DNA of 64,000 bases, taken from assembly GCA_041651455.1 (NCBI GenBank), contig JBAZJG010000003.1, positions 18,517-82,516 of the forward strand, given 5' to 3'. This stretch comes from Candidatus Omnitrophota bacterium. Lineage in GTDB: Bacteria; Omnitrophota; Gorgyraeia; Pluralincolimonadales; Pluralincolimonadaceae. The notes beneath the pieces were generated by a model. The model was not told the DNA's origin, ran no database searches, and worked only from the letters and a program-made list of their open reading frames with translations. The translations under genes were made by a program, and so were the position numbers. Shown here piece after piece: positions 3,457 through 53,593 of the stretch (position 1 is its first letter; every line of letters starts with the position of its first letter).

Positions 3457-3532
3457 GGGGCTGTAGCTCAGCTGGGAGAGCGCTTGAATCGCACTCAAGA
3501 GGTCGGGGGTTCGATCCCCCCCAGCTCCACCA
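3457..3532 (+). tRNA. tRNA-Ala (anticodon CGC)
   Basis: Cloverleaf GGGGCTG / GCTC-AGCTGGGA-GAGC / CTTGA-ATCGCAC-TCAAG / GGGGG-TTCGATC-CCCCC / CAGCTCC-ACCA, with an encoded CCA. Confidence 0.9.
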
Positions 3533-3588
3533 TCTCAAAAGGGGATTTTCAAATCCTTAATCCTTCAATCAAGCCGCAAAGCAGGTTT

Positions 3589-4512
3589 ATGATCGGCGCC
3601 GCGGCAGTGGCATTCCTATTCCAATCACAAGCATATCCGGAAGATATCCGGAAGGCCGTAGTCGCCGGGTCGTTCTACCCGGCGGAATCGGTGGTACTTG
3701 CGCAGCAGGTCGACAGGTACCTTGAAGAGGCCGGCCCGCAGGAGATAGGCGGAGAGATAGTCGCCATAATATCGCCCCATGCCGGGTATATATATTCGGG
3801 GCCGGTCGCGGCTTACGGGTACAAGGCCATTTCGGGGCGCCGGTACGATACGGTGGTGATAATCGGGCAAAGCCATTCGCTTATATTCGACGGGGCGGCG
3901 GCGCTTGAAAAGGACCAATATGAGACGCCGCTCGGCAGGGTCCCGATCGACCGCGATTTTACGAAAAAGCTGTTGAGGGCCGAGAAGGTCACAATGGTAT
4001 CGAAGCCCGGGGCTTTTGACGAGGATTATACGATCGAGACCCAGGTGCCATTCCTGCAGAGGTCGCTGAAAGATTTCAAGATAGTGCCGCTGGTCATAGG
4101 AAGGGCGGATTATAACACCTGCAAAGGGCTCGCAAGGGGCCTTATAAAGGTCATCAAGGAATCCGGGAAGAGGGTATTGATAGTCGCAAGCACGGACCTT
4201 TCGCACTACTATAAGTACCCGGACGCCGTCGTGAAGGACCAGGCGACGATGTCCGAGATGATGAACTATGACCCAAAGAGGTTTGCGATAAAAGTGGGGG
4301 AAAGGGAATGCGAGCTTTGCAGCCCGGCGCCGGTTATAGTGGCCATGTTGGCCGGAACGGAACTGGGCGCCGACAATATCAGAGCGCTCAAATACGCCAA
4401 TTCAGGCGATACCGCCGGAGATAAGAGCAGGGTCGTAGGTTACGGAAGCATCGTTATCTATAAAGCCGAGGAGAATAGGATGCTTACTTCCGCGCAGAAG
4501 AAGGAGCTGTGA
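3589..4512 (+). CDS. MEMO1 family protein (AmmeMemoRadiSam system protein B-like)
   Basis: Start is the internal ATG at 3589; the ORF-track N-terminus would overlap tRNA-Ala. Motifs AGSFYP, ISPHAGY and TDLSHY. Runs in frame to the TGA at 4510-4512. Confidence 0.75.
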   Translation: MIGAAAVAFLFQSQAYPEDIRKAVVAGSFYPAESVVLAQQVDRYLEEAGPQEIGGEIVAIISPHAGYIYSGPVAAYGYKAISGRRYDTVVIIGQSHSLIFDGAAALEKDQYETPLGRVPIDRDFTKKLLRAEKVTMVSKPGAFDEDYTIETQVPFLQRSLKDFKIVPLVIGRADYNTCKGLARGLIKVIKESGKRVLIVASTDLSHYYKYPDAVVKDQATMSEMMNYDPKRFAIKVGERECELCSPAPVIVAMLAGTELGADNIRALKYANSGDTAGDKSRVVGYGSIVIYKAEENRMLTSAQKKEL

Positions 4513-10690: not shown

Positions 10691-10719
10691 TTGACAAACG
10701 GGGAGCTTTGGTATAAACT
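10691..10719 (+). promoter_or_regulatory. Putative promoter driving the FMN riboswitch and rib operon
   Basis: TTGACA at 10691-10696, a ~15-nt spacer, then TGG-TATAAA. Confidence 0.4.
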
Positions 10720-10721
10720 CT

Positions 10722-10870
10722 ATTTGTTCTTCGGGAGGGGTGAAATTCCCCACTGGCAGTGAAATCCTTGCGCAAGCAAGGATCAAGCCTGCGAGCTTCC
10801 CAAAAGGGGGGCAGACCCTGTGAGATCCAGGGGCCAATAGTCAAAGTCTAGATGGGAGAAGACAGAACAC
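10722..10870 (+). promoter_or_regulatory. FMN riboswitch (RFN element)
   Basis: Conserved RFN blocks: GGGGTGAAATTCCCCACTGGC, AGCCTGCGAGC, a GACCC stretch, and AAGTCTAGATGGGAGAAGACA. P1 strands are GTTCTTC and GAAGA(C)AGAAC. It sits directly upstream of ribBA. Confidence 0.85.
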
Positions 10871-10900
10871 AAGGGCCGTGTTTTGCGTTCGCTTTATTTT

Positions 10901-10935
10901 ATCCCGGAGATTTTATCTTCGGGATTTTTTGTTTT
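10901..10935 (+). terminator. Intrinsic terminator (riboswitch expression platform)
   Basis: 10-bp stem ATCCCGGAGA / loop TTTT / TCTTCGGGAT, followed by TTTTTTGTTTT. The 3' arm TCTTCGGG is identical to the 5' strand of P1. Confidence 0.75.
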
Positions 10936-10946
10936 AAAGGAGAGGC

Positions 10947-12146
10947 ATGTTCAATACGATAAAAGAAGCGATAGAGGACATCAAAAGAGGCAGGATGGTG
11001 ATAGTCATTGATGACGAAGGCCGCGAGAATGAAGGCGACCTCCTGATGGCCGCGGAATTCGTGACGCCCGATGCGATAAACTTCATGGCGAAATACGGGC
11101 GCGGGCTGGTTTGCGTCCCGATGGAAGAAAGCCGGTTGCGTGAGCTCGGTATAGAAGTTCTATCCGAGACAGGCGGCGGCAATTTCAATACCGGGTGGAC
11201 AATGTCCATCGACCTCAAGGAAGGCGTAACGACGGGCATTTCGGCGCACGACAGGGCAAGAACGATAAAAGCCATGGTAAACCCGAGGTCGAAACCGGAG
11301 GACTTCAGCAGGCCGGGGCATATATTCCCCCTTAGGGCAAAGGAAGGAGGAGTCTTGGTCAGGACAGGGCATACCGAAGCGGCCGTGGACCTTGCCAAGC
11401 TCGCGAAGTTGAGGCCTGCAGGCGTGATATGCGAGATAATGAACGACGACGGAACGATGGCAAGGACCCCGCAGCTTAAGGAATTTGCGAAGAAGCACAA
11501 ACTAAAGATATGCACGATAGCGGACCTCATAAAGTACAGGATGGCCGCGGAGAAACTGGTCCGGCTTGTCGAGGTGACGACGCTCCCGTCGGAATACGGC
11601 GAGTTCAGGCTAATGCTTTACGAATCGATGATAGACAGGAAGGTGCATGTGGCGCTCGCGATGGGGGAACTGTCCGGGAAGCCGATACTTGTAAGGGTGC
11701 ATTCGGAATGCCTGACGGGCGATGTCTTCGGCTCTTTGAGGTGCGATTGCGGCGGACAGCTCAAGCGCGCCCTGTCGATGATAGGCAAGGAAGGCAGGGG
11801 TGTCCTGCTGTATATGAGGCAGGAAGGGCGCGGGATAGGCCTCGAGAATAAGATCAAGGCCTATGCGCTTCAGGACAAAGGCCTTGATACGGTAGAGGCG
11901 AACAAGGCGCTCGGTTTCGACGCTGACCTGAGGGACTACGGCACCGGCGCGCAGATCCTCGCGGACCTCGGCCTCAAGAACATACGGCTGCTGACGAATA
12001 ATCCGCAAAAGATAGTCGGGCTGGAAGGGTACGGGCTCAAGGTAGTGGAAAGGGTGCCTATAGAGATTCCTTCCAACCCGAAGAACTTCAGGTATTTGAA
12101 GACGAAGAAAGAGAAGATGGGCCACGTGCTCAGGAAGTTAAAATAA
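10947..12146 (+). CDS. ribBA: Bifunctional 3,4-dihydroxy-2-butanone-4-phosphate synthase / GTP cyclohydrolase II
   Basis: N-terminal DHBP synthase motifs ([18 protein letters not shown]) and C-terminal GCHII motifs ([15 protein letters not shown]); SD AAAGGAGAGG upstream. Confidence 0.9.
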
Positions 12147-12157
12147 AGGAGGGGAAG

Positions 12158-12622
12158 ATGGTGAAGACGGTAGAAGGGCAGTTGATTGCGAAGGGAAAGA
12201 AATTCGCTATAGTCATTTCGAGGTTCAACGATTTCATTTCGAAACGGCTCCTCGAGGGCGCGGTGGACACGCTTTTAAGGCATGGCGCCAAGGAGAGCGA
12301 AGTCGAGGCGGTATGGGTCCCGGGCGCGTTCGAGATACCGCTGGCAGCAAATAAGATAGCGAAGTCGAAGAAGTTCGACGCTATCATATGCCTTGGGGCT
12401 GTGATAAAGGGTTCCACGCCGCATTTTGAGTATGTATCCAGCGAAGCCGCGAAAGGCGTGGCGAAGGTATCGATGGACAGCGGCGTACCCGTGATATTCG
12501 GCGTGATAACGGCAGAGAACCTTGAACAGGCGATAGAGCGCGCGGGCACGAAGGACGGCAATAAAGGGCGCGATGCGGCCATGTCTGCTATAGAGATGGC
12601 GAACCTGTTAGAGAGCATCTGA
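12158..12622 (+). CDS. ribH: 6,7-dimethyl-8-ribityllumazine synthase
   Basis: 154 aa with lumazine synthase signatures ([18 protein letters not shown]). Confidence 0.9.
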
Positions 12623-13044
12623 TGAGAAAACGCACGCAGGCGCGCGAGTGCGCGCTCCAGATACTGTACCAGTCGGACATAAGGAAAGAGCAACCGGAGA
12701 AGCTGTTCCTCGATTTCTGGAGGGACAACGAGGTCGGCGCCGAGGTGTCGGATTTCGCCTCATCGCTGGTGCTCGGTACGCTCAAGAACATGAAGAAGAT
12801 TGACGAGACGATAACGAGCTACGCGAGCAACTGGAAGCTGAACCGCATGGCCGTCATCGACAGGAACGTTCTGAGGCTCGCAACATATGAACTGCTATTC
12901 TGCGATGACATACCGCAGAAGGTCTCCATAAACGAAGCGGTGGACCTCGCGAAGAAGTTCGGCGATACGGAGTCCGGTAAGTTCGTGAACGGGATACTGG
13001 ACAAGATAAGCAAAGAAGAGGCCAAGAGTGGAAAAGCTGGCTGA
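12622..13044 (+). CDS. nusB: Transcription antitermination factor NusB
   Basis: 140 aa NusB fold (REcALQILYQ..., LNRMAVIDRNVLRLATYELLF); TGATG overlap with ribH. Confidence 0.85.
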   Translation: MRKRTQARECALQILYQSDIRKEQPEKLFLDFWRDNEVGAEVSDFASSLVLGTLKNMKKIDETITSYASNWKLNRMAVIDRNVLRLATYELLFCDDIPQKVSINEAVDLAKKFGDTESGKFVNGILDKISKEEAKSGKAG

Positions 13045-13861
13045 CCTTCACGTCCATACGCGCCTTTCTGACGGGACGTTCACTCCGGAAGAGGCGGTTG
13101 AGGGCGCGAGGAAGGCCGGCCTTTCATGTATAGCTATCACCGACCACGATTGCGTTGATGCTATAGCGCCAGCAAGGAAAGCCGCAAGGGGCAGGGGCAT
13201 CGAGATCATCCCCGGAGTAGAGATGACCGCGCAGGAGAAATCGCGCGAGGTGCATATACTCGGTTATTATCCCGATATCGAAGACGCGCGATTCCTGAAG
13301 AGGCTAAAGGCAATAAGGCAGAACAGGGTCGACCGGGCATATAAGATCATCGAGAAGCTCAAGAAATACGATATATGCCTTGACCCGGAGACGGTGTTTG
13401 AGCTTAGCGGGCCGGGTTCCGTGGGCAGGATGCATATCGCATCCGTCCTCGAGCGGCGCGGATACGTATCATCGATAAAGGAGGCGTTCAACAGGTATAT
13501 CGGCGACAAAGGCCCCTGTTATGTAGCGCACTACGAGATAACAGCCAGGGATGCTATCGCAGAGCTCAAACGTGTAGGCGCGGTCGTGGTCTTCGCGCAC
13601 CCCCAGCTGATGGGAGGTGAGGAGCTTATACCGAAGTTCGTGAAGTACGGACTCGACGGCCTGGAGGCGTTCCATTCGGAACAGTCGAAGTCGGTGGCGC
13701 GTAAATTTACAGAGATCGCGGGTGAGAACGGCTTGTTGGTGACGGGAGGTTCTGATTGCCACGGCCTGAACAAAGGCCGGATGCTGATGGGGACTGTCAT
13801 GGTGCCCTACAGCCTTGTCGAAGGGTTGAAAAGATGCGCAAAGAGGACAAAAAATATATAG
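13028..13861 (+). CDS. PHP-family phosphoesterase (TrpH/YciV-like)
   Basis: GTG start. DLHVHTRLSDG, AITDHD and later His/Asp motifs of the polymerase/histidinol-phosphatase domain. Overlaps nusB by 17 nt and ribD by 28 nt. Confidence 0.75.
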   Translation: MEKLADLHVHTRLSDGTFTPEEAVEGARKAGLSCIAITDHDCVDAIAPARKAARGRGIEIIPGVEMTAQEKSREVHILGYYPDIEDARFLKRLKAIRQNRVDRAYKIIEKLKKYDICLDPETVFELSGPGSVGRMHIASVLERRGYVSSIKEAFNRYIGDKGPCYVAHYEITARDAIAELKRVGAVVVFAHPQLMGGEELIPKFVKYGLDGLEAFHSEQSKSVARKFTEIAGENGLLVTGGSDCHGLNKGRMLMGTVMVPYSLVEGLKRCAKRTKNI

Positions 13862-14871
13862 GCGCAGCGATAGAGCTGGCGTCAGCGGCAAGGGGAAAGA
13901 CAAGCCCGAACCCCTGTGTGGGCGCAGTGGTCGTAAAAAGAGGAAAGATAGTAGGAAAAGGATACCACAGGTATGCAGGCGGGCCGCATGCCGAAGTATA
14001 TGCCCTGAAACAGGCGGGAACAAAGGCAAAGGGCGCGACATTGTACGTTTCCCTCGAGCCGTGCAGGCATTACGGGAAGACACCCCCGTGCGTGGATATG
14101 ATAAATGAATACGGTATCAGGCGCGTCGTCGCGGCTATGAAGGACCCGAATCCGCTGAATAACGGAAAAGGGCTTGCCGCGCTCAGGAGGTACGGGATAA
14201 GAGCGGAATCCGGCATAATGCGCAAGGAGGCGCGGGAACTGAACAGGCCGTTCATAAAATATATGGAAGAGAAGATGCCCTTCGTGATCGTTAAGGCGGC
14301 ACAGACCCTCGACGGCAAGATAGCGACGAGGACGGGGGATTCGAAATGGGTATCTAACGAGGCATCTAGGAGGTTCGTCCACAGGTTAAGGAGCGAGGCC
14401 GATGCGGTGATCGTCGGCGCGAACACGGTTGTTAAGGACGACCCGCTTCTTACGGCGAGGATAAAAGGCGTAAGGGCAAAACAGCCGCTTAGGGTAATAC
14501 TGGCCGGAAGAAACGGCATACCTGGGAATGCAAAGGTCCTGCACAGCAGGGGCGGGAAGGCGCTTGTGATGATGCCGGACAGGAAGACGGGGAAAGTTGC
14601 CATTAAGAAGCTTTTGAGGGTACTTGCCGACAGGGGTGTGATGAGCGTGCTGATAGAAGGAGGCGGGGAATTGATCGCCTCGGCATTCAGGGAGAAGGTC
14701 GTCGATAAGGTCTATTTCTTCATAGCGCCGAAGATAGCCGGCGGAAGGGACGCGAAGTCGTCCGTAGAGGGTGAAGGCGTCGCTAATATGAAGGACTCGG
14801 TCGTGATCAGGGACATTACGTTGCACGATATGGCCGGGGACATACTTATAGAAGGATACGTCAGGAGATAG
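13834..14871 (+). CDS. ribD: Bifunctional diaminohydroxyphosphoribosylaminopyrimidine deaminase / 5-amino-6-(5-phosphoribosylamino)uracil reductase
   Basis: Internal ATG at 13834. Cytidine-deaminase zinc motifs (HAEVYAL, EPCRHYGKTPPC) plus a C-terminal reductase domain. Confidence 0.85.
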   Translation: MRKEDKKYIGAAIELASAARGKTSPNPCVGAVVVKRGKIVGKGYHRYAGGPHAEVYALKQAGTKAKGATLYVSLEPCRHYGKTPPCVDMINEYGIRRVVAAMKDPNPLNNGKGLAALRRYGIRAESGIMRKEARELNRPFIKYMEEKMPFVIVKAAQTLDGKIATRTGDSKWVSNEASRRFVHRLRSEADAVIVGANTVVKDDPLLTARIKGVRAKQPLRVILAGRNGIPGNAKVLHSRGGKALVMMPDRKTGKVAIKKLLRVLADRGVMSVLIEGGGELIASAFREKVVDKVYFFIAPKIAGGRDAKSSVEGEGVANMKDSVVIRDITLHDMAGDILIEGYVRR

Positions 14872-14872
14872 C

Positions 14873-15499
14873 ATGTTTACGGGGATAATAGAAGAGAAGG
14901 GGACGGTAGAAAGATTCGAGAAGTCCCGAGAGCCGTCGCTGATAACAATAAAGGCGGCTAAGACGGCGGCCGGCCTTAAGACCGGCGACTCGGTATCCGT
15001 TGACGGCGTATGCCTTACGGTCGTAAAGGCAGGAGAAGGAGCATTCTCGGCGGAGGCCGTTGAAGAGACGCTTAGGAGGACCACGCTCATCCTGCGCAGG
15101 CCGGGGGATGCCGTCAATCTCGAAGGTGCCCTTACCGCGGGATCAAAAATAAGCGGACATTTCGTTACGGGGCATATAGACGGGACGGGTGAGATAGGAT
15201 CTGTCAGGGAAAGTAAAGGCCAGAAGACCGTTGAGATCAAGGCGGAAAAAGACCTGCTGAAAGGCATCGTGCCGAAGGGATCGATAGCGGTCGACGGCAT
15301 CAGCCTCACTGTCGGGGACGTAAAAGAAGGTTCGTTCTCGGTCTACATAATACCTCACACGGCCGGGATGACCACGCTGGCATCTAAAAAGGCGGGAGAC
15401 AAGGTCAACCTCGAGACAGACATCCTCGGAAAATATGTCAATAAAAACGGTCTTTCCGGGATAACCATGGAATTCCTGCGGGAAAAGGGGTTCATTTAA
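14873..15499 (+). CDS. ribE: Riboflavin synthase (alpha subunit)
   Basis: MFTGIIEEKG start and duplicated lumazine-binding halves (GDSVSVDGVCLTV / GSIAVDGISLTV). Confidence 0.85.
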   Translation: MFTGIIEEKGTVERFEKSREPSLITIKAAKTAAGLKTGDSVSVDGVCLTVVKAGEGAFSAEAVEETLRRTTLILRRPGDAVNLEGALTAGSKISGHFVTGHIDGTGEIGSVRESKGQKTVEIKAEKDLLKGIVPKGSIAVDGISLTVGDVKEGSFSVYIIPHTAGMTTLASKKAGDKVNLETDILGKYVNKNGLSGITMEFLREKGFI

Positions 15500-15524: not shown

Positions 15525-15553
15525 TTGACTATTTGCCTTACCCGTGATAAAAT
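15525..15553 (+). promoter_or_regulatory. Putative sigma70 promoter (TTGACT-N17-TAAAAT) for the thermonuclease gene
   Basis: -35 at 15525-15530 and -10 at 15548-15553; only ~8 nt separate the -10 from ATG 15562. Confidence 0.4.
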
Positions 15554-15561
15554 CAACCGTT

Positions 15562-16083
15562 ATGTTAAGTTCTTTTGTACGCCGCAGAGCGCTGCTGGCC
15601 GCCCTCTTCTTGTTCGTAACGTCAATAGACTCCGGCGTTTTCGCCGAAGAGCTGTTCGTCACAAGGGTGATAGACGGCGATACGATAGTGGTGGAGAACG
15701 GCGAGCACGTCAGGTATATAGGGATCGATACGCCGGAGAAGGGCCGCCCGTATTATAACGAGGCAAAGAGGCAGAACGAGAAACTCGTAAAAGGCAGGAG
15801 AGTCAGGCTCGAGTACGACGCCGGGAAAAGGGATAGGTACGGCAGGACGCTTGCTTACGTGTATGCCGGCGATATATTCGTGAACGAGGAACTGGTACGG
15901 GGCGGGTACGCATTGGCGTATACGGTGCCTCCGAACGTAAAATACTCGGAGAGGTTCGTCTCCCTGCAGCAGGAAGCGAGGGAGCAGAAGAAGGGTATCT
16001 GGGGCCCGGAAAAGCCGGAGCCCAAAAAGAAGAAGACCGTCTGGGACTACATTTTATATAAATTGAAGTATCTGTTCGGATAA
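15562..16083 (+). CDS. Secreted thermonuclease (SNase/micrococcal nuclease family)
   Basis: Signal peptide followed by SNase motifs (VTRVIDGDTIVV, YIGIDTPE, DRYGRTLAYV). The alternative GTG at 15544 lies inside the putative -10. Confidence 0.75.
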   Translation: MLSSFVRRRALLAALFLFVTSIDSGVFAEELFVTRVIDGDTIVVENGEHVRYIGIDTPEKGRPYYNEAKRQNEKLVKGRRVRLEYDAGKRDRYGRTLAYVYAGDIFVNEELVRGGYALAYTVPPNVKYSERFVSLQQEAREQKKGIWGPEKPEPKKKKTVWDYILYKLKYLFG

Positions 16084-16084
16084 C

Positions 16085-16161
16085 CGGGGCGTGGCTCAGT
16101 TTGGTAGAGCGCTTCGTTCGGGACGAAGAGGTCGACAGTTCAAGTCTGTCCGCCCCGACCA
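16085..16161 (+). tRNA. tRNA-Pro (anticodon CGG)
   Basis: CGGGGCG acceptor stem, anticodon arm CTTCG-TTCGGGA-CGAAG, T-arm, CGCCCCG-ACCA. Confidence 0.9.
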
Positions 16162-16285: not shown

Positions 16286-19122
<2,837 letters not shown>

Positions 19123-22724: not shown

Positions 22725-23321
22725 ATGTCCAAGGTCGTTAAGGTATTCCTGCTGGTATCGTCGCTGCTCGTATCGTCATCCGCGCTGATGGCCGAGACCG
22801 CCGATGTCATAAACAGTGACGCGACCCTGAAGGAGGCGGGTTTCTATTCGGGATGGGGAACGGCCGACGTAGGAGATGACGGCGCGCCGAAAGATTACGA
22901 CAACGTATATATCGCGGGCAGGTTCGGGTTCAACCTGAAGAAATGGCTGAATTGGAACGGATTGAAGGGCTCACTCTTATTCATGGTAGAACCTTTCGCG
23001 AACCCGGTGATCAAGCCCAGTTCCGAATATGAGGCCGGATGCAGCCTCGGTTTAAAATATATGTTCCCCCTGGGGGACAAGCTCTATCCGTATATAGAGG
23101 GCGGCACGGGCGGCATCTATATATCCGAGAAGACAAGGAAGCAGGGTTCACATGCGAATTTCGTAGACCACGGCGGTGCGGGCCTTTATTATTTCATAAA
23201 GGACAACCTTGCCGTCAATGTCGGCTACCGCTACAGGCATATATCGAACCTCGGCATAAAGAAGCCGAACGGCGGTATCGACACTAACTCCGTTATCGGG
23301 GGCGTTTCGCTGTTCTATTGA
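22725..23321 (+). CDS. Small outer-membrane beta-barrel protein (PagL/acyloxyacyl-hydrolase-like)
   Basis: Signal peptide, alternating amphipathic strands, and a C-terminal aromatic residue (…GVSLFY). Confidence 0.45.
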   Translation: MSKVVKVFLLVSSLLVSSSALMAETADVINSDATLKEAGFYSGWGTADVGDDGAPKDYDNVYIAGRFGFNLKKWLNWNGLKGSLLFMVEPFANPVIKPSSEYEAGCSLGLKYMFPLGDKLYPYIEGGTGGIYISEKTRKQGSHANFVDHGGAGLYYFIKDNLAVNVGYRYRHISNLGIKKPNGGIDTNSVIGGVSLFY

Positions 23322-25990
23322 CAGATCTTATAACGACCCACACTAACGCCGATTTCGACGCGCTCGCGTCGATGGTGGCGGCGCGCAAACTATATCCGGG
23401 CGCGAGGCTCGTCCTGCCCGGTTCGCAGGAGAGGGCCGTAAGGGAGTTCATGTCCCTTAGCGAGGATATAGTAAAGATAGAACACGAGAAGGATGCGCGC
23501 CTTGACGATGTGGGCCGGCTTATCGTGGTCGAGACGCGGTCTCCCTCGCGTATAGGGAAGATGGCAGGCTTGGCTGGCAGGAAAGGCGTGGAGGTGCATA
23601 TATATGACCACCACCCGAGGTCGCGGGGCGATATCAAGGCCGATAAGGACGTGTACGAAAAGGCCGGAGCCACCACAACGATCATCTGCGACATCGTAAG
23701 GAAGCAGGGCCTCAGGATAACGCCGCTTGAAGCGACAATAATGGCGCTTGGGATATACGAAGACACCGGGTCACTGACATTCCCTACGACTACGAAACGC
23801 GATATAGATACGGTCAGCTTCCTTGTATCGCAGGGAGCGGACCTGAACCTCGTCTCATCGTACCTGAAGAGGGAGCTTACCGAGAAGGAGCTTAACCTCC
23901 TTGCCCGCCTGATCCAGTCAACCGAGATACACGTCGTGAACGGAGTGCATCTTGCGATAGCCTCGGCGACAGACGATGAATATGTCGACGACTTGAGCCT
24001 GCTCGCGCATAAGATAGAAGAAGCGGAGAACTTCAACGCGACCTTCATACTTGTCCAGACGAAGGACAAGGTCCAGTTCATAGCGAGGAGCAGCCTGCCG
24101 TTCGTGGATGTATCGAAAGTAGCGTCATTTTTCGGCGGCGGAGGGCATCCAACTGCGGCCGGCGCCGTCATCAGGCGCAGCGGTTTGCCGGAGGTTAAAG
24201 CTAAACTGCTCGGGTACCTCAGGGGCCATATACGTTCCGACATAAAGGCGAGCGAACTCATAAAGGGCGGGACGCTGGTACTCGATAGCGACGAGGCCGT
24301 AAGCGAAGCGAAGGAGAAGCTTGCGGCATCGGGATCGGAATATGCCGCCATACGGGGAAAGGCTGCCGCAGGTATGCCGGCAGGGATCGTCTCGCTGAAG
24401 GAGCTGGACCGCGCGATATCAAGGGGTTTCGGCCATGCGAGATTGAAGGGCTATATGTCGGGAAAGGTATATCCCGTAGGTCCCGACACATCCATATATG
24501 CCATACAGGATATAATGCAGCAGAAGTCGGTCGGATGCGTGCCCGTGATGGACGGCAGGAGGTTTATGGGGCTCGTTACAAGGACCGACCTGCTCCGCAC
24601 GTTCCACGGCAGGCTCTTCGGGGAACCGGCGCCGGGTACAAATGAAACCGGCGGCGGTTTTGCGATAGACTTGGCACCTAATATAAAGAGAGTTTTTCCG
24701 GCCAAGGTCGCCGAACTGCTGAGGTTCTCCGGAAGGATCGCGGAGGAGATGGGCTTCAAGGCGTTCGCGGTCGGAGGGTTCGTGCGCGATCTCATACTCG
24801 GCGCGGGAAATTACGACCTTGACATAGTCATCGAAGGAAATTCGATAGATTATGCTAAAAGGATGGCCAAGGAGCTATGCGGCGTATACATATACCATAA
24901 GAGGTTCGGGACGGGGACGGTCTTCTTCCCATGCCCCAAAGGGATCGCTCCCGCGAAGTCCGCGGGCGGGAAATGCAAGATCGATGTGGCGATGACGAGG
25001 ACCGAGATATACGAGCGCCCTGCGGCACTGCCGACGGTCAGGTTCGGGCCTATTGAGAACGACCTCTACAGGAGGGATTTCACCATCAATGCGATGGCGT
25101 TCAGCCTCGGCAGGAGAAGATTCGGAGAACTGCTCGACCCGTTCAACGGCAGGAAGGACCTGAAAGAAGGAAAGATCAGGGCCCTGCATGACCTTAGTTT
25201 CGTGGACGACCCGACCAGGATATTCCGGGCGGTAAGGTTCGAGCAGAGGTTCGATTTCAGGATAGAGCCGCATACCGAAGAGCTGATAAAGAAGGCAGTC
25301 GGCCTGAAGATGGTCGACAGGACCCAGAAGCAGAGGATACGCGAGGAGATGATCGCAATGCTATCGGAGGAAGAGCCGTTGAAGGCGGTCAGGAGGCTCT
25401 CCGAGCTCAATGAGCTGCGATTCATAGATAAGGGCCTCAAGCTTACGAAAGGTGTCGTATCGATGTTCGGCTCGACCGGTGAGGCCTTGAAATGGTACGA
25501 CACCAGCGCGCTCAAGAGGAAGCATGTTACCGAACGCTGGCTGTTATATATGGCGGCGTTACTGGACGGGCTCGGACACGAAGCTACGGGCAGGATATGC
25601 TCTGAATTCGTGTTCAGGAAGGACGACTCCAGGAAACTGAACCGTTTCAAGGCGGACCACGAAAAAGTACTCGGCATGCTTTCGAGGAGAGGGAAGATGA
25701 GGCCTAGCGAGATATACGATTGCCTCAAGGATTATCCCCAGGATGTCCTGTTGATGCTGGTTGCGAAGAGCCGTTCGCAGACAGCGAGGCGCAGGATAAT
25801 GGTCTTCCTTGAAAAATATTCGGAAGTAAAACTGCACCTGCGGGGCGAGGACCTGAAGAAAAAAGGCGTGAAACCCGGCCCTCATTTCAAGGATATAATG
25901 GAGAAGGCGCTTTACGCAAAGCTGGACGGAAAAATCAAAACGAAGGCGGAAGAACTCGAGTTCGCCATGGGGAGACTGCGATGGGAATAA
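23318..25990 (+). CDS. Fusion protein: DHH-DHHA1 phosphoesterase + tandem CBS + nucleotidyltransferase (CCA-adding enzyme / poly(A) polymerase head) + HD-like tail
   Basis: TTG start (TTGA overlap with the upstream stop). DHH motifs (HTNADFDALAS, DHH), DHHA1 GGGHPTAAGA, a CBS pair, then the PolyA_pol head (FAVGGFVRDLILG...DLDIVIEG) and an RNA-binding region. Confidence 0.8.
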   Translation: MTDLITTHTNADFDALASMVAARKLYPGARLVLPGSQERAVREFMSLSEDIVKIEHEKDARLDDVGRLIVVETRSPSRIGKMAGLAGRKGVEVHIYDHHPRSRGDIKADKDVYEKAGATTTIICDIVRKQGLRITPLEATIMALGIYEDTGSLTFPTTTKRDIDTVSFLVSQGADLNLVSSYLKRELTEKELNLLARLIQSTEIHVVNGVHLAIASATDDEYVDDLSLLAHKIEEAENFNATFILVQTKDKVQFIARSSLPFVDVSKVASFFGGGGHPTAAGAVIRRSGLPEVKAKLLGYLRGHIRSDIKASELIKGGTLVLDSDEAVSEAKEKLAASGSEYAAIRGKAAAGMPAGIVSLKELDRAISRGFGHARLKGYMSGKVYPVGPDTSIYAIQDIMQQKSVGCVPVMDGRRFMGLVTRTDLLRTFHGRLFGEPAPGTNETGGGFAIDLAPNIKRVFPAKVAELLRFSGRIAEEMGFKAFAVGGFVRDLILGAGNYDLDIVIEGNSIDYAKRMAKELCGVYIYHKRFGTGTVFFPCPKGIAPAKSAGGKCKIDVAMTRTEIYERPAALPTVRFGPIENDLYRRDFTINAMAFSLGRRRFGELLDPFNGRKDLKEGKIRALHDLSFVDDPTRIFRAVRFEQRFDFRIEPHTEELIKKAVGLKMVDRTQKQRIREEMIAMLSEEEPLKAVRRLSELNELRFIDKGLKLTKGVVSMFGSTGEALKWYDTSALKRKHVTERWLLYMAALLDGLGHEATGRICSEFVFRKDDSRKLNRFKADHEKVLGMLSRRGKMRPSEIYDCLKDYPQDVLLMLVAKSRSQTARRRIMVFLEKYSEVKLHLRGEDLKKKGVKPGPHFKDIMEKALYAKLDGKIKTKAEELEFAMGRLRWE

Positions 25991-26343
25991 GGCCTGAAAG
26001 GGTGGCAAGCGAGATGAGGGAGAGCATCTCGATGATAATATCCGAGAACCTGAAGGACCCGAGGATCGGTTTCGTGACGATAACAAGGGTGGAGATCACG
26101 CCGGACCTAAGGAATGCGAAAGTATACTTCAGCTCTCTCGGAGGGAAGAAAGAGAAGGAATACGCTGCGGAAGGGCTTAATTCAGCGACGGGTTTCATCA
26201 GGAAGCTGCTCGGAGAAAGGCTCAGGATGAAGTTCACCCCGGAGCTTTTGTTCAGGCTCGACGAGTCTACGGAGTACAGCCTGCACCTTAACGAGATATT
26301 CGATAAGATACATAAAGAGAAAGAGGGGAAAAATGAGCCTTAA
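25981..26343 (+). CDS. rbfA: Ribosome-binding factor A
   Basis: 120 aa with the RbfA KH-like fold (RVASEMRESISMIISENLKDPRIGFVTITRVEITPDLRNAKVYFS). Confidence 0.9.
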   Translation: MGIRPERVASEMRESISMIISENLKDPRIGFVTITRVEITPDLRNAKVYFSSLGGKKEKEYAAEGLNSATGFIRKLLGERLRMKFTPELLFRLDESTEYSLHLNEIFDKIHKEKEGKNEP

Positions 26344-27310
26344 CGGCGTTGCCGCAGCGATACGCAGGCACAAGAAGTTCCTCGTGACGGCGCATGTCGA
26401 CCCGGAAGCCGACGCGATAGGTTCGCAGCTTGCGTTGGCGAGCATGCTGCGCAGGGCAGGCAAGAAAGCCGTCATAATAGACCAGGACCCGCCGCCGATA
26501 TCCTGCGATTTCCTCCCGGGAATAGGCGCTATTAACGTGCTGGGCAGGATGAAGAAAGAGGTAAAGCCTGGGGATTTCGATTGTGCATTGGTGGTTGACT
26601 GTCCGACGCTCGAAAGGACCGGGAAAGTCGCGGGGCTCATATCAGACGATATGGCCGTAGTCAACGTGGACCACCATGTCAGCAACACGGGTTTCGGAGA
26701 CATAAACTGGGTGGACAGCAAGAGCGCGGCCACCGGCGAGATGGTTTACGGTATCTTCAGAAAGCTGCGTATCAAACCGACAAAGCAGGAAGCAGTGTCT
26801 ATCTATGCAGCAATACTGATAGATACGGGATCGTTCAGGTATTCCAACACGTCCGCAAAGACACATATCCTTGCCGCGGAACTCATGAAGAGCGGTCTCG
26901 ATACGAACTCGATATACGAGAACCTTTTCGAGATGAAGACCTATGAGATAACGCACCTTCTCGGACATTCGCTGTCCACGATGAGAAGGAGCAGGGACGG
27001 CAAGATCGTATGGCTTTGGATAACGGGAGATATGCTCTCCGAATCCGGCGCCGACCTGAAGGACGCGGAGAACTTCATAGGGTTCGCGAGGTCCGTAAGG
27101 GGGAGTAAAGTAGCGGTGCTGTTCAAGCAGGCGAAGGAAGGCGGGGCCATAAAGGTCAGTTTGAGGGGCAAGAACGGTATCGACGTCAACAAGATCGCCT
27201 CGAAATTCGGGGGCGGCGGGCATGCCGCAGCGGCCGGATTCAGCATAAAGGCCCGTGACCGTGCTTCGGCGGAAAAGAAGGTAATAGCTGAGATATCGAA
27301 ATACACCTGA
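26333..27310 (+). CDS. nrnA: DHH-family bifunctional oligoribonuclease / pAp phosphatase NrnA
   Basis: AHVDPEADAIGS, DHH and DHHA1 (GGGGHAAAAG) motifs. Confidence 0.8.
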   Translation: MSLNGVAAAIRRHKKFLVTAHVDPEADAIGSQLALASMLRRAGKKAVIIDQDPPPISCDFLPGIGAINVLGRMKKEVKPGDFDCALVVDCPTLERTGKVAGLISDDMAVVNVDHHVSNTGFGDINWVDSKSAATGEMVYGIFRKLRIKPTKQEAVSIYAAILIDTGSFRYSNTSAKTHILAAELMKSGLDTNSIYENLFEMKTYEITHLLGHSLSTMRRSRDGKIVWLWITGDMLSESGADLKDAENFIGFARSVRGSKVAVLFKQAKEGGAIKVSLRGKNGIDVNKIASKFGGGGHAAAAGFSIKARDRASAEKKVIAEISKYT

Positions 27311-46700: not shown

Positions 46701-49302
46701 ATTCCTCAAATATTTCGAGGCGAAGGGGCATCCCGTCGTCCCGTCGGATTCATTAGTCCCGAAGGACGACCCGACTGTCCTCTTCACGAGCGCCGGGATG
46801 AACCAGTTCAAGGATTATTTCCTCGGCAAGAGGAAGGATATGCGGCGCGCCGCAAGCAGCCAGAAATGCCTGAGGACAGGCGATCTCGATAACGTGGGAA
46901 AGACACCGTCTCACCATTCGTTCTTTGAGATGCTCGGCAACTTCTCTTTCGGCGATTATTTCAAGGAAGACGCGATCGCATGGGCGTGGGAGTTCCTCAC
47001 GAAGGAACTCGGCATGAAGGAAAAGGACCTCTGGATATCGGTCTATAAGGATGACGACGAGGCGTTCAGGATCTGGAAAGATAAGATCAAGATCCCGGAA
47101 AACAGGATTTTAAGATTCGGCGCGAAGGATAATTTTTGGCCGGCAAACGCGCCTGAGGAGGGGCCAAACGGTCCGTGCGGCCCTTGTTCGGAGATATATT
47201 TTGACCGCGGCGAGAAGTACGGCTGCGGGAAGCCTGATTGCAAACCCGGGTGCTGCCGCAGGCACGTTGAGGTCTGGAACCTTGTCTTTACACAGTTCAA
47301 CAGGGTGGGCCTCAATAAGCTTGAGCCGCTGCCGAACAAGAACATAGACACAGGGATGGGTCTTGAACGGCTTGCCTCGGTCATGCAGGGTGTGCCGACG
47401 AATTTCGATACGGACATCTTCAGGCCTATCATAGACGAGATAAAGCAGTTTACGGATAAGGATGATACCGGCCACAGGAACGCCATTGCAGACCATGTAA
47501 GGGCCGCCGTCTTCTGCATCGCGGATGGAGTTCTTCCCGCGAATACCGGAAGGGGTTATGTGCTGAAGACCCTGATAAGGCGCTCGCTGGTACACGGGAA
47601 GTTCCTGGGCATAAACGAACCGTTCCTGTACAAGCTCGTAGACAGCGTGGTCCGCGCAATGAAAGGCGGGTATCCGGAGTTAGGCGAACGCAGGGAAAAT
47701 ATCAGCGTCATCATAAAGTCCGAGGAAGAGAAGTTCTTCCAGATAAACGAGGATGTAAGGGCCGACTTAGAATCGGCCGCTGCGGAATTGAAGGGTATGA
47801 ATAAGAAAGTCATCCCGGGAGACAAGCTGTTCTATTTCCACGATACGCGCGGCCTGCCGCTCGACCTTATCAAGGAGTTCGCGGCCGGCGAAGGGCTGGA
47901 GCTTGATATAAGCGGATACGAGAAGCTTATGGACGAGCAGCGCAGGAAATCACGCGGTGCGACAAAGCTTACCGGAGAAGTATTCGCCGAGACGCTTACG
48001 GCGGCGGTCCTCGGCACGGGATCGAGTTCCGAATATATCGGATATGATAAATTGGAGTCCGATGCGTCGATAATTGCACTGGTCAAGGAGAACAAGGCAG
48101 TCGGGTCCGTTGACTCGCCATCGGTTTTCGCGGCTGTACTCGACAGGACGCCATTCTATGGGGAGACAGGCGGCCAGGTCGGTGATACCGGCAAGCTTGA
48201 AGGGAACGGGTTGGACATCACCGTCACGGATACTAAACTGGTCGAAAAAGTACCGGTCCATATTTGCAGTATCAAGCAGGGCTCGGTAAAGGTCGGCGAT
48301 AAGGTCAAGGCCGCAGTAGACGGCAGAAGAAGGATGGCTATCGCTCGGCATCATACGGCGACGCACCTTTTGCAGGCGGCGCTTCGAAAGGTACTCGGGG
48401 CGCATGTCAACCAGTCGGGTTCATTGGTCGCGCCGGACAGGCTGCGTTTCGATTTTACGCATTTCAAGCCGATGAGCGCAGAGGAGATCGAGGCGACGGA
48501 ATCCCTTGTCAACGAGTATGTCAGGAAGAACGCTCCCCTTAACGTGCGAGTGATGGATATAGACGAGGCGAAGAAGATAGGGGCGACCGCCCTGTTCGGT
48601 GAAAAGTACGACAAAAAAGTGCGCGTAGTGGACGTAAAGGAAATCTCAAAGGAGTTCTGCGGCGGCACGCACCTGGGCGCTACAGGAGAGATAGGCATAT
48701 TCAAGATAATGTCGGAGGGTTCTGTCGCGGCCGGAATACGCAGGATCGAAGCCGTCGCCGGTGAAGCCGCATACGGGAAGATCAAGGAGTCGGAAAATAT
48801 ACTGAATGAGGTCGCGGATTCGCTTGCGGTAAAACCCGCCGGTCTTCCGGCGCAGATAGACGGGCTGCTGGCCAAGGTTAACGAGCTCGAGAAGAAGCTC
48901 AAGGGCCTCCAGTCCGAAAGCATAAAACAGAAGGCGAAAGAGCTTGTGTCCGCCGGGAAATTATCGGATAATAACATAAGTATCGTTGCAAAAAGGCTCG
49001 ACGGATACGCGCCCGACACCCTTGTAAACCTCACCGATTCAATAAAATCGTCACTGGGAAAAAACGCGGTCTCGATGCTTGTAGGAGCTTATGAAGGAAA
49101 GGCGTTCATCGTTGTAGGCGTCACGCAGGACCTTTCGGAGGGTGTTATCGACGCCCGCGCGATAGTAAAAACGATGTCCTCCGCGATTTCGGGCGGAGGA
49201 GGCGGACGGCCGGACCTCGCACAGGCCGGAGGAAAAGATATAACAAAACTGGATGAAGCGCTGAAGGCCGGGGAAAAAGCGGTAAAGGAAATCAAAAGAT
49301 GA
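46675..49302 (+). CDS. alaS: Alanine--tRNA ligase
   Basis: 875 aa with class II aaRS motifs, editing-domain HxxxH...CxxxH, and C-terminal DHHA1 (GGGGG). Confidence 0.95.
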   Translation: MTTDQLRSKFLKYFEAKGHPVVPSDSLVPKDDPTVLFTSAGMNQFKDYFLGKRKDMRRAASSQKCLRTGDLDNVGKTPSHHSFFEMLGNFSFGDYFKEDAIAWAWEFLTKELGMKEKDLWISVYKDDDEAFRIWKDKIKIPENRILRFGAKDNFWPANAPEEGPNGPCGPCSEIYFDRGEKYGCGKPDCKPGCCRRHVEVWNLVFTQFNRVGLNKLEPLPNKNIDTGMGLERLASVMQGVPTNFDTDIFRPIIDEIKQFTDKDDTGHRNAIADHVRAAVFCIADGVLPANTGRGYVLKTLIRRSLVHGKFLGINEPFLYKLVDSVVRAMKGGYPELGERRENISVIIKSEEEKFFQINEDVRADLESAAAELKGMNKKVIPGDKLFYFHDTRGLPLDLIKEFAAGEGLELDISGYEKLMDEQRRKSRGATKLTGEVFAETLTAAVLGTGSSSEYIGYDKLESDASIIALVKENKAVGSVDSPSVFAAVLDRTPFYGETGGQVGDTGKLEGNGLDITVTDTKLVEKVPVHICSIKQGSVKVGDKVKAAVDGRRRMAIARHHTATHLLQAALRKVLGAHVNQSGSLVAPDRLRFDFTHFKPMSAEEIEATESLVNEYVRKNAPLNVRVMDIDEAKKIGATALFGEKYDKKVRVVDVKEISKEFCGGTHLGATGEIGIFKIMSEGSVAAGIRRIEAVAGEAAYGKIKESENILNEVADSLAVKPAGLPAQIDGLLAKVNELEKKLKGLQSESIKQKAKELVSAGKLSDNNISIVAKRLDGYAPDTLVNLTDSIKSSLGKNAVSMLVGAYEGKAFIVVGVTQDLSEGVIDARAIVKTMSSAISGGGGGRPDLAQAGGKDITKLDEALKAGEKAVKEIKR

Positions 49303-50522: not shown

Positions 50523-51131
50523 ATGAAGAAGAGGGCCGTAAAGCATAAGCGCAAGACCACTGAGACCGATATAACTGTAGAACTCAATATCGACGGGACG
50601 GGGAAATTCCGCGTCTATACCGGGATAGGGTTCCTCGACCATATGCTGTCTCTCTTCGCCAGGCACGGGTGTTTCGACATGAAGCTTATCGCTAAAGGCG
50701 ACCTAGATGTCGATATACACCATACAAATGAGGACGTAGGAATAGCCCTCGGCGAAGCTTTGGCAAAAGCGCTCGGCAATAAGAAAGGGATACGCCGTTT
50801 CGGGTCGAGGGACGTAGCGGTCCCCATGGAAGAGGCGCTTGCCCGCATTGCGCTGGATATAAGCGGAAGGCCGTCGCTGTATATGCGCTGCACGGGTAAA
50901 CCTGTGCCTCCGACGCTTCTTGACAGGCAGGGCTATAGCCTTTCGAGCGCGAAGCAGTTCTTCGAGGCCTTTGTAAGGAACTCGGGAATAAACCTGCATA
51001 TCGAATACCGCGGGGAGGACCTGCATCATGTGCTCGAGGCGATATTCAAAGCGTTCGGAAGGGCGTTGTGCGACGCGACGAGGATAGACCCGAGGGTAAA
51101 AGGCATCCCGTCGACAAAAGGGAGATTATGA
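50523..51131 (+). CDS. hisB: Imidazoleglycerol-phosphate dehydratase (monofunctional)
   Basis: 202 aa with IGPD motifs (GIGFLDHML, DxHHxxE). No fused histidinol-phosphatase domain. Confidence 0.9.
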   Translation: MKKRAVKHKRKTTETDITVELNIDGTGKFRVYTGIGFLDHMLSLFARHGCFDMKLIAKGDLDVDIHHTNEDVGIALGEALAKALGNKKGIRRFGSRDVAVPMEEALARIALDISGRPSLYMRCTGKPVPPTLLDRQGYSLSSAKQFFEAFVRNSGINLHIEYRGEDLHHVLEAIFKAFGRALCDATRIDPRVKGIPSTKGRL

Positions 51132-53207: not shown

Positions 53208-53593
53208 ACAAGTTCATCAATGGGCTGAAATATGACGAGAACGGGCTGATACCTGCGGTAATACAGGACTGCAAGAACAACGAGGTCCTGATGGTCGCTT
53301 ATATGAACGATGTCGCGGTAAAGAAGACGATCGAGACGAAGAGGGCCCACTTCTATTCCCGCTCAAGGAAGAAGCTTTGGCTTAAGGGCGAATCGTCCGG
53401 GCACGTGCAGAAAGTGAAGGAGATCCGTTTCGATTGCGACGCCGACTGCCTTCTGGTGAAAGTGGAGCAGGTTGGCGGGGCATGCCATACGGGCTACAGG
53501 TCGTGCTTTTACAGGAAATTGAAGGATAATAAGGGGAATACGGCCGTATCGGGAAAGAAGATGTTCGACCCCGATAAGGTCTATAAAAAATAA
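53204..53593 (+). CDS. hisI: Phosphoribosyl-AMP cyclohydrolase
   Basis: 129 aa with the cyclohydrolase domain only (GLIPAVIQD..., CDxDC); no fused HisE domain. Confidence 0.85.

Follow-up and report, generated by a model that had tools for sequence, protein, structure and literature searches.

The window, by which we mean the whole 64-kb stretch of DNA that was analysed, carries a riboflavin (rib) operon on its forward strand, and a gene for a PHP-domain phosphoesterase is embedded in this operon between nusB and ribD. An FMN riboswitch aptamer (RF00050; 10722-10867, + strand) matched the full model (positions 1-138) with 92.6 bits, above the gathering score of 66.2 (E 5.8e-20). Just upstream of it lies a sigma-70-like promoter match (TTGACA-17-TAAACT; 10691-10719, +), which is a match to the consensus only, and downstream of it a terminator-like hairpin with an 11-bp stem (10901-10925) and a T-run (the whole at 10901-10935, +) is likely to be the expression platform of the riboswitch. 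The genes that follow, all on the + strand, are ribBA (DHBP synthase/GTP cyclohydrolase II; 10947-12146, with its ATG at 10947; NF006803, 624.7 bits, cutoff 569), ribH (lumazine synthase; 12158-12622; TIGR00114, 189.6 bits), nusB (transcription antitermination factor; 12622-13044; TIGR01951, 159.7 bits, cutoff 88), the PHP gene (13028-13861), ribD (deaminase/reductase; 13834-14871; TIGR00326, 364 bits) and ribE (riboflavin synthase; 14873-15499; NF006767, 222 bits). The mechanical ORF of ribD begins at a TTG at 13756 (13756-14871); the in-frame ATG at 13834 is the most plausible start as judged from homologues. The PHP gene overlaps the end of nusB (stop codon at 13042-13044) by 17 nt and the most plausible start of ribD by 28 nt, and no terminator-like site was detected on the + strand within the rib operon. 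The preliminary description had placed the gene between nusB and ribD, overlapping both and behind an FMN riboswitch, and these coordinates bear it out.

The ORF call gives a GTG start and a protein of 277 aa, which we assign to the TrpH/RNase AM (cog0613) type of PHP phosphoesterase. The motifs DLHVHTRLSDG (aa 6-16) and AITDHD (aa 36-41) are present, and the PHP domain (PF02811; E 1.5e-13) was the sole Pfam family found. The top NCBIfam matches were 3',5'-nucleoside bisphosphate phosphatase (E 1e-48) and RNase RNM (E 6e-43); since the scores fall under the equivalog cutoffs (165.9 bits versus 400 and 147.2 versus 375, respectively), the protein is a family-level relative and not an equivalog of either. 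The top PDB sequence matches were Cv1693 (2YB1; E 5e-32), BAD_1165 (3E0F) and RNase AM (7UG9/9ETK). An AlphaFold model (pLDDT 90) superimposed on Cv1693, Vibrio cholerae RNase AM and BAD_1165 with TM scores of 0.86-0.87, along the whole chain in the case of 9ETK and 2YB1, and a Foldseek search with this model (E <= 1e-3) returned the TrpH group first and polymerase PHP domains after it. The TrpH/YciV-type identity proposed earlier is supported by motifs, domain and structure matches alike. The PhnPP family (phosphoribosyl 1,2-cyclic phosphate diphosphodiesterase) was rejected as an assignment (NF041661, 105 bits versus a cutoff of 500), and no phn genes were seen near the PHP gene.

Each of the three structural relatives is similar in part. 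RNase AM (YciV/Rnm; Escherichia coli and V. cholerae; 7UG9, 9ETK) has the same PHP barrel with a helical insertion domain (TM 0.86 to 9ETK), but is only ~23-28% identical to the window protein, and E. coli rnm adjoins yciO and the trp operon, whereas the window gene adjoins nusB. Cv1693 (TM 0.87) shares the metal and AMP-binding residues but carries an HPGR arginine that is absent from the window protein; we know of no association of Cv1693 with NusB. BAD_1165 of Bifidobacterium adolescentis (3E0F/3O0F), a putative metal-dependent phosphoesterase with no described function to our knowledge, was the top Foldseek match (E 2e-23, 31% identity), and it resembles the window protein in having a TGGSDxHG...K motif and in lacking the HPGR arginine.

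Residue conservation was evaluated with roles taken from the published study of RNase AM (PMC9410882). The nine metal ligands of the window protein (H8, H10, D15, H40, E65, H76, H191, D243 and H245) align with H13, H15, D20, H45, E72, H83, H198, D255 and H257 of E. coli RNase AM. At least 68 of the 70 Omnitrophota sequences keep them, as do 11/11 Verrucomicrobiota-type sequences and 10/10 of the NusB fusions described below, and with E. coli Rnm, Cv1693 and BAD_1165 included the nine positions still show little or no variation. Residues R100, R103, R134 and F154 align with the R107/R110/R141 pocket and the stacking F161 of E. coli RNase AM and are invariant in Omnitrophota, the Verrucomicrobiota-type proteins, the fusions, E. 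coli Rnm, Cv1693 and BAD_1165; of the four homologues that stand alone or are unclassified, two carry a different residue at one of these positions each. In RNase AM, the pocket arginines and the stacking Phe hold a phosphate other than the one that is cleaved (PMC9410882). The invariance of the metal ligands, the 5'-phosphate arginines and the stacking Phe thus fits a 5'-phosphorylated nucleotide or RNA substrate and not the singly phosphorylated ARAPDP, the riboflavin intermediate for which the enzyme had been proposed. One position departs from the E. coli enzyme. Its R201, the Arg after HPG and in contact with the scissile phosphate at the metal centre, corresponds to L194 (HPQL) in the window protein, to T, L, V or I across Omnitrophota and to L or V in the Verrucomicrobiota-type proteins and the fusions, whereas Cv1693 has R as E. 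coli does. Because this Arg is absent, the specificity may differ from that of E. coli RNase AM; as judged from the alignment, K249, which is nearly invariant in the clade, may substitute for it.

To place the gene among its relatives, we took the best 80 out of at least 573 relatives, each from a different assembly (GTDB species representatives), and surveyed them by tblastn with rib, nusB, SNase and acylphosphatase queries. Among these best 80, nusB lay directly upstream of PHP in 76 loci, with a median HSP gap of 15 nt; the other four comprised three with PHP alone and one truncated at its 5' end. Stand-alone PHP homologues without nusB are those of loci L065, L075 and L083. We define a NusB-linked PHP subfamily here as those genes that directly follow a nusB of the same strand or are fused to it; this grouping is ours and is not a curated one, and the window gene, with same-strand nusB upstream and overlapping it, belongs to it. 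The order ribBA-ribH-nusB-PHP-ribD-ribE recurs across Omnitrophota at PHP identities as low as 41%, and ribH-nusB-PHP-ribD was found in 57 of the best 80 loci, so that recurrence inside rib operons of relatives, which the preliminary description had wanted checked, is indeed conserved. The median HSP gap from PHP to ribD was 23.5 nt, with small gaps or overlaps, and an FMN riboswitch was present in 9 of 12 further Omnitrophota-type loci that were tested. Within Omnitrophota, the linkage of PHP to ribD, often overlapping, is as tight as that to nusB.

Outside this phylum, the two linkages come apart. All 11 Verrucomicrobiota-type loci kept nusB-PHP and were devoid of ribBA and ribH; ribD-ribE lay 1-2 kb downstream in four of them, rib genes were not found in the DNA surveyed around the other seven, and ftsY was the gene after PHP in those examined. 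An FMN riboswitch is absent from these 11 loci. In none of the best 80 loci did PHP adjoin rib genes where nusB was demonstrably missing. The adjacency of nusB and PHP, which could be read directly from gene order across 80+ loci, outlasts divergence at the level of phyla (41-50% identity) and changes on both flanks, and the neighbourhood signal belongs to nusB rather than to the rib enzymes. All of the nusB-linked cases come from related phyla, and shared ancestry therefore contributes to the pattern. An Elusimicrobiota homologue (45% identical) is preceded by genes for an RNase J-like protein and a PhoH2 RNA helicase. A flavin role signalled by an FMN riboswitch beside a nusB-PHP pair without rib genes was also looked for; none was found: ten Verrucomicrobiota/Scalindua loci gave no Rfam match of any kind, and loci L079, L081 and L082 gave none to the FMN riboswitch.

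In anammox bacteria, the two genes are joined. In Scalindua (locus L076), nusB and PHP form a single ORF of 435 aa, and proteins of 425-460 aa with both PF01029 and PF02811 made up more than 100 clusters at 90% identity, with members from Scalindua, Brocadia, Hypogeohydataceae and Jettenia, including contigs of 2-4 Mb; they are as little as 50% identical to the query. A chromosome-scale Brocadia contig (CP091279.1, 4.05 Mb) carries ribH, NusB::PHP and ftsY in this order. Five proteins among the 150 nearest representatives of 50% clusters were over-length, of which three were NusB fusions and none was fused to a rib enzyme. The Brocadiales fusions resemble the window in the identity of their PHP domain (43% to the window protein) and in the order NusB-then-PHP with ribH upstream, but differ in being one polypeptide with a disordered linker of ~20-30 residues and in having ftsY next and not ribD; unlike the window, the fusion locus of Scalindua showed no FMN riboswitch when scanned for RNA families. 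In the model of the Brocadia fusion, both domains are confident, and because the linker (residues 134-151) is disordered and the pTM is 0.65, no fixed NusB-PHP interface is predicted. The fusion of two overlapping neighbour genes is possible by a single frameshift and may persist neutrally. A neighbour-joining tree, which has no support values and samples mainly the closest matches, placed the fusion PHP domains in one group with the proteins of Omnitrophota and of the Verrucomicrobiota-type loci and left the characterised enzymes outside it; we read from it only that the fusions are closer to the window protein than those enzymes are. In public annotation, the Brocadiales fusions are named only 'transcription antitermination factor NusB' or 'PHP domain-containing protein'. 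We found no description of a NusB-PHP pairing or fusion in the literature searched (NusB with PHP domain or RNase AM); one phylogeny of COG0613 removed proteins of >400 aa (PMC11528712) and would thus have missed the fusions.

Overall, because nusB is the constant partner of the PHP gene across phyla and is fused to it in anammox bacteria, an RNase AM-like enzyme acting on RNA or nucleotides is likelier than the missing riboflavin phosphatase. We favour, at a probability of roughly 55%, a NusB-associated, RNase AM-like, 5'-phosphate-dependent phosphoesterase that acts on the 5' ends of rRNA or other RNA and that lies in the rib operon because nusB does. Linkage of ribH and nusB is widespread; with nusB located in the rib operon of Omnitrophota, both nusB and PHP come to stand behind the FMN riboswitch, and the PHP gene most likely arrived in this riboswitch-controlled vitamin operon together with nusB. 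In the proposed mechanism, the trinuclear-metal PHP enzyme would recognise a 5'-phosphorylated nucleotide end and would cleave the phosphate ester on the 3' side of that nucleotide, in the form of either 5'-to-3' exonucleolytic trimming of 5'-monophosphate RNA and oligoribonucleotides or removal of the 3'-phosphate of pAp. The subfamily would be a dedicated NusB partner in Omnitrophota, Verrucomicrobiota and anammox Planctomycetota, with nusB and PHP presumably co-transcribed, often translationally coupled, and in Brocadiales covalently joined as one predicted product. A dedicated partner of NusB would most likely serve the processing of 5' ends of pre-rRNA, or of another RNA bound by NusB at boxA, near the antitermination complex. 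What the analysis shows directly is the family and fold, the conserved active site and pocket, the gene order and the fusion; that the substrate is RNA, that the protein is coupled to NusB functionally or physically and that it takes part in rRNA maturation we infer.

Several published observations bear on this reading. In E. coli, all three rRNAs receive their mature 5' ends through RNase AM (PMC7261194), and NusB anchors boxA of the pre-rRNA leader in an antitermination complex that already includes SuhB, a subunit with a phosphatase fold (PMC10250234). Fusions of RNase AM to RNase III are known from deltaproteobacteria (PMC7261194) and are a precedent for joining such an exonuclease to an rRNA-processing factor, by analogy only, the partner being different; likewise, SuhB, of the IMPase fold, is a precedent for a phosphatase-fold protein among Nus factors, again only an analogy since the fold differs (PMC10250234). 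In a more specific form, on which we would not wager, the PHP protein of Omnitrophota, Verrucomicrobiota and anammox Planctomycetota may be an accessory of the rRNA antitermination complex, a 5'-to-3' exonuclease that NusB recruits and that trims the pre-rRNA leader where NusB holds boxA. If this were so, antitermination would be coupled physically to 5'-end maturation, and in Omnitrophota ribosome biogenesis factors would be tied to flavin status through the FMN riboswitch. The conserved pair and its anammox fusion offer a testable link between the rRNA antitermination machinery and rRNA 5'-end processing, a link that is new relative to the literature searched.

The NusB-associated reading has its most serious competitor in a housekeeping role, which we consider unlikely, though well short of negligible: a pAp (3',5'-bisphosphonucleotide) phosphatase and/or a diribonuclease or nanoRNase, like Cv1693 and the RNase AM of Pseudomonas, whose adjacency or fusion to NusB would be a historical accident with no functional coupling. 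The top NCBIfam match of the window protein is the nucleoside bisphosphate phosphatase and its top PDB match Cv1693, the pocket residues are conserved, diribonuclease activity is described for RNase AM orthologues (PMC11528712), nothing beyond a flexible tether appears in the fusion model, and three close homologues stand alone. An accident of this kind fits poorly with a nusB-PHP adjacency that persists at 41-50% identity through changes on both sides and with retention of the fusion across an order. The window also encodes an NrnA-like DHH/DHHA1 protein, so a generic nanoRNase or pAp phosphatase role may already be covered, which tells against the favoured reading as well as this one.

The proposal that the PHP protein is the missing ARAPDP phosphatase of riboflavin biosynthesis, which the preliminary description had put first, is now improbable, lowered but not refuted. 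It draws on the place of the gene between nusB and ribD, seen in 57 of the best 80 loci, on the terminator-type FMN riboswitch upstream in the window and in 9/12 other Omnitrophota-type loci, and on the ribD-ribE pairs that still lie 1-2 kb downstream in 4/11 Verrucomicrobiota-type loci. PHP enzymes can be phosphomonoesterases (Cv1693, HolPase), and no gene for a HAD, histidine-family phosphatase, IMPase or HisN was found among the larger ORFs scanned in the 64-kb window, a result that says little about the whole genome. The step is done by different and often promiscuous families according to lineage (PMC12051542, PMC13151069), and the statement that the known ARAPDP phosphatases are HAD-family is outdated, since a histidine-family phosphatase and an IMPase, both of Aquifex, were added in 2025 (PMC12051542; reviewed in PMC13151069) to the HAD enzymes of E. 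coli (YigB/YbjI), Bacillus subtilis, Arabidopsis and Bacteroides thetaiotaomicron. Like the window protein, which would share their reaction if the proposal held, these are metal-dependent or general phosphoesterases of modest size, but their folds are unrelated to it and none is PHP (PMC13151069). The window protein thus belongs to none of the families with demonstrated ARAPDP activity; a PHP-family ARAPDP phosphatase was not described in the literature searched, and the reviews list no PHP enzyme. Against the proposal, the linkage follows nusB wherever nusB and the rib genes separate: association with rib genes is not independent of unrelated neighbours, as it holds within Omnitrophota while elsewhere PHP stays with nusB, the best 80 loci hold no case with rib genes and demonstrably no nusB, and the fusions conserved across Brocadiales have only ribH adjacent. 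The window protein keeps an invariant second phosphate-binding pocket for the non-cleaved phosphate (PMC9410882), which ARAPDP, having one phosphate, would not need. Membership of nusB itself shows that a place in the rib operon need not mean a riboflavin function, and the case shows where function prediction from operon context can mislead; annotation as the missing riboflavin phosphatase is unwarranted without an assay. If the ARAPDP reading were nevertheless true, PHP would become the fourth family of enzymes for this step, the least settled one in riboflavin synthesis.

A flavin-linked RNA function, in which the enzyme would remove FAD caps (deFADding) with release of intact FAD and would be induced through the riboswitch when flavin is scarce, is very improbable. 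E. coli RNase AM does remove FAD caps and release intact FAD, but this activity could not be disentangled from ordinary decay of 5'-P RNA, and FAD caps are rare (PMC9410882); the PHP gene stands behind the FMN riboswitch in Omnitrophota, whereas in Verrucomicrobiota and Brocadiales it is not linked to flavin control. The window also holds a his cluster (49299-53207), and that it lacks a phosphatase gene, as first described, was verified: hisD (49299) and an IGPD-only hisB (50523) are followed by hisH, hisA and hisF, which ends at 53207. PHP-family HolPases exist, but the suggestion that the PHP gene fills this gap is scarcely credible and fails on type (cog0613, not HisK), since the only HolPase-related NCBIfam match was PRK06361 (36.7 bits versus a cutoff of 117, over residues 5-67), no HolPase structure was among the Foldseek matches with E <= 1e-3, 36 kb separate the gene from the his cluster, no his genes lie beside PHP in the loci annotated or inspected in detail, and the insertion domain with its 5'-phosphate pocket is conserved.

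The PHP gene (13028-13861, + strand; GTG start preceded by a GAAGAGG motif) lies between nusB and ribD, overlapping them by 17 nt and 28 nt, respectively, downstream of an FMN riboswitch, and both motifs reported in the preliminary description (DLHVHTRLSDG and AITDHD) were found in its reading frame. On the + strand, a consensus match to a sigma-70-like promoter (10691-10719) is followed by the FMN aptamer (RF00050, 10722-10867, 92.6 bits), a terminator-like hairpin with a T-run (10901-10935), ribBA (10947-12146), ribH (12158-12622), nusB (12622-13044), the PHP gene, ribD (13834-14871, start taken as the ATG at 13834) and ribE (14873-15499). Within the rib operon, a terminator scan gave no candidate site on the + strand. 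In this operon nusB, usually a housekeeping rRNA antitermination factor, stands behind a terminator-type FMN riboswitch (10722-13044), and no strong internal promoter was found in this interval, the sole candidate being a weak 9/12 match at 12186-12213.

PHP was the sole Pfam domain of the window protein. The TrpH/YciV-type label was correct at the family level, and the protein is an equivalog of no characterised member, because its top NCBIfam scores (3',5'-nucleoside bisphosphate phosphatase, 165.9; RNase RNM/AM, 147.2; PhnPP, 105 bits) all fell far under the equivalog cutoffs (400, 375 and 500, respectively), while its nearest solved structures were Cv1693 (2YB1), BAD_1165 (3E0F) and RNase AM (7UG9, 9ETK). 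An AlphaFold model built on an alignment 19 homologues deep (pLDDT 90.3, pTM 0.88) matched these four entries at TM 0.84-0.87 in a structure search, the next matches being polymerase PHP domains at TM <0.5. The gene adds a divergent new member to a known and very large family, with 17,641 representatives of 50%-identity clusters (E <= 1e-3).

One genome per GTDB species was scanned for homologous loci, the best 80 of at least 573 relatives were kept (one per assembly; the closest, L006, is 92% identical to the window protein), and rib genes around them were sought by tblastn with the rib proteins of the window. The window is from a Candidatus Omnitrophota genome, and the nearest homologues of its PHP protein bear that name in their source records. 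The six-gene order was the same on contigs with homologues 73%, 66% and 51% identical, the flanking genes differing on the last of these. The gene does recur in rib operons of relatives within the phylum, a point that the preliminary description had proposed to check: ribH-nusB-PHP-ribD was present in 57 of the 80 best loci, at identities down to 41%, and ribD lay directly 3' of PHP in 62. Twelve other loci of the Omnitrophota type (order ribBA-ribH-nusB-PHP-ribD-ribE) were checked for an FMN riboswitch; it preceded ribBA in nine and was not found in L034, L047 and L061. The constant neighbour of PHP is nusB, which lay directly 5' of it in 76 of the 80 best loci (median HSP gap 15 nt). Eleven Verrucomicrobiota-type loci (41-44% identity) had nusB-PHP with neither ribBA nor ribH upstream; ribD-ribE lay 1-2 kb 3' in four of them, and tblastn found no rib genes in the sequence available around each of the other seven. 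The Rfam scan gave no FMN riboswitch at loci of this type, and ftsY followed PHP in those examined. In none of the best 80 loci did PHP adjoin rib genes where nusB was demonstrably missing, and three stand-alone homologues lacked nusB. One of the three, a 45%-identical PHP gene with no adjoining nusB in an Elusimicrobiota MAG (L065, 2438-6475), comes after genes for an RNase J-family-like beta-CASP protein and a PhoH2 RNA 5'-3' helicase, with an AdoCbl riboswitch just 3'. In an unclassified MAG (L082, 2038-2936), the order ribH, nusB, PHP is followed by an overlapping gene for a histidine-family phosphatase, which scores above the cutoff of the cobC (alpha-ribazole phosphatase) model, with a cobalamin riboswitch and cob genes farther along. 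Some taxonomic labels in the locus set look unreliable: many MAGs with the Omnitrophota-type operon (L006, L011, L013, L014, L019, L026, L030-L032 and others; L061 was also noted) are labelled 'uncultured Planctomycetia/Planctomycetales' or 'Chlamydiae', and among the Verrucomicrobiota-type loci L071 bears an Acidobacteriota label ('Sulfotelmatobacter').

In Scalindua (L076, 7521-8828), nusB and PHP share one 435-aa reading frame, uninterrupted by any stop, in which ~30 linker residues separate the two parts, and NusB::PHP fusions also occur in L086 and L087 (7001-8284 in each). With the Scalindua fusion protein as query, more than 100 clusters (90% identity) were recovered whose members are 425-460 aa long and have PF01029 as well as PF02811, at identities down to 50%; they are from Scalindua, Brocadia, Hypogeohydataceae and other Brocadiales. 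The contigs bearing them include ones of 2-4 Mb, among them the Brocadia chromosome-scale CP091279.1 (4.05 Mb; ribH, NusB::PHP, ftsY), and a Jettenia fusion was recovered independently. The single protein thus occurs throughout the anammox Planctomycetota (Scalindua, Brocadia, Jettenia, Hypogeohydataceae), with ribH and ftsY on either side, and source databases call it simply 'NusB' or 'PHP domain protein'. Of the 150 50%-cluster representatives closest to the window protein, five were over-length: three NusB fusions, one PHP protein with a C-terminal shikimate kinase (P0370, 474 aa) and one in which a Cys-rich CWC domain lies N-terminal to PHP (P0382, 343 aa). None was fused to a rib enzyme. 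In a neighbour-joining tree, which carries no support values and draws on a biased sample, the fusion PHP domains grouped with the Omnitrophota and Verrucomicrobiota-type proteins, with E. coli Rnm, Cv1693 and BAD_1165 outside. In a model of the Brocadia fusion (pTM 0.65), both domains are confident and the linker between them is disordered, so that the domains are tethered but have no predicted rigid interface. As far as our searches show, neither the conserved pair nor the fusion has been described; a COG0613 phylogeny would have missed the fusions because proteins >400 aa were excluded (PMC11528712).

RNase AM coordinates three Mn ions through H13, D20, H45, E72, H83, H198, D255 and H257 (we assign H15 to an HxH motif with H13), and at the metal centre R201 makes contact with the phosphate. 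A pocket of R107, R110 and R141 buries the terminal nucleotide's 5'-phosphate, and F161 is able to stack against the base; AMP is bound likewise by Cv1693 (PMC9410882). In our alignments these ligands, the pocket and F161 correspond to the metal ligands, R100, R103, R134 and F154 of the window protein, which vary little or not at all among 70 Omnitrophota, 11 Verrucomicrobiota-type and 10 fusion sequences. Since the pocket phosphate is not the one cleaved, homology suggests a substrate with a 5'-phosphate and a 3' phosphate ester (pAp, pNpN or 5'-phosphorylated RNA). However, unlike in RNase AM and Cv1693, the R201 position is hydrophobic throughout the nusB-linked clade (L194 in the window), and a near-invariant K249 is shared with BAD_1165, so specificity could differ in detail.

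We favour, at somewhat better than even odds (roughly 0.55), an RNase AM-like, 5'-phosphate-dependent phosphoesterase that would work with NusB. The ribH-nusB pairing is widespread, and a partner of nusB would therefore be carried into the rib operon along with it, with no riboflavin function of its own. In E. coli, RNase AM is a 5'-end trimming enzyme for 5S, 16S and 23S rRNA, and it also occurs fused to RNase III (PMC7261194); NusB binds boxA of the pre-rRNA leader in an antitermination complex that includes the phosphatase-fold SuhB (PMC10250234). Against this reading, every nusB-linked case is from related phyla, a single frameshift can fuse overlapping neighbours, the modelled fusion has no predicted interface, and in Omnitrophota PHP is no less tightly coupled to ribD than to nusB and lies under the riboswitch. 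A doubtful but serious alternative is a general pAp phosphatase or nanoRNase that is not truly coupled to NusB; the retention of the pair in different phyla and an NrnA-like gene elsewhere in the window (26333-27310) weaken it. The proposal that PHP is the missing phosphatase for ARAPDP, a riboflavin intermediate, drew on a rib operon that is indeed conserved within the phylum, and a side activity is possible because promiscuous enzymes often perform this step (PMC12051542, PMC13151069); nevertheless we consider it improbable, since the linkage follows nusB where rib genes are absent and the single phosphate of ARAPDP would need to sit at the metals, leaving selection for the conserved second-phosphate pocket, which fits a 5'-phosphorylated substrate, unexplained. 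An April 2026 review names no PHP enzymes among known ARAPDP phosphatases (PMC13151069). A flavin-linked deFADding role, recalling the removal of FAD caps by RNase AM (PMC9410882), seems very unlikely, and the suggested histidinol-phosphate phosphatase least credible of all, as no such structure was among the significant matches to the window model.

At 49299-58032, the his cluster, described earlier as lacking that phosphatase, reads hisD, hisB (IGPD only), hisH, hisA and hisF, then trpE, trpG, trpD, trpC and trpF. Its scanned ORFs included no hisG, hisC, hisI/E, trpA, trpB or gene for a histidinol-phosphate phosphatase, and the next genes encode a PilZ protein and an M48 peptidase. Downstream of ribE are a staphylococcal-nuclease homologue (15544-16083), tRNA-Pro (16085-16161) and an acylphosphatase gene (16286-16573); an acylphosphatase lay within 4 kb 3' of ribE in 31 of the 46 loci with enough sequence, and wherever Rfam scans gave a tRNA match at an Omnitrophota-type locus (10 loci), a tRNA gene lay 3' of ribE. 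At 23318-27310, the gene for an 890-aa DHH-DHHA1-CBS and tRNA nucleotidyltransferase protein (best NCBIfam model A-adding enzyme, at 701 bits short of its 1440 cutoff) precedes the separate NrnA-like DHH/DHHA1 gene, truB, ribF and pnp. Finally, a mechanical ORF for a Memo-like protein (3484-4512) overlaps tRNA-Ala (3457-3532), and its true start is probably downstream of 3484 because the Pfam match begins at residue 58.
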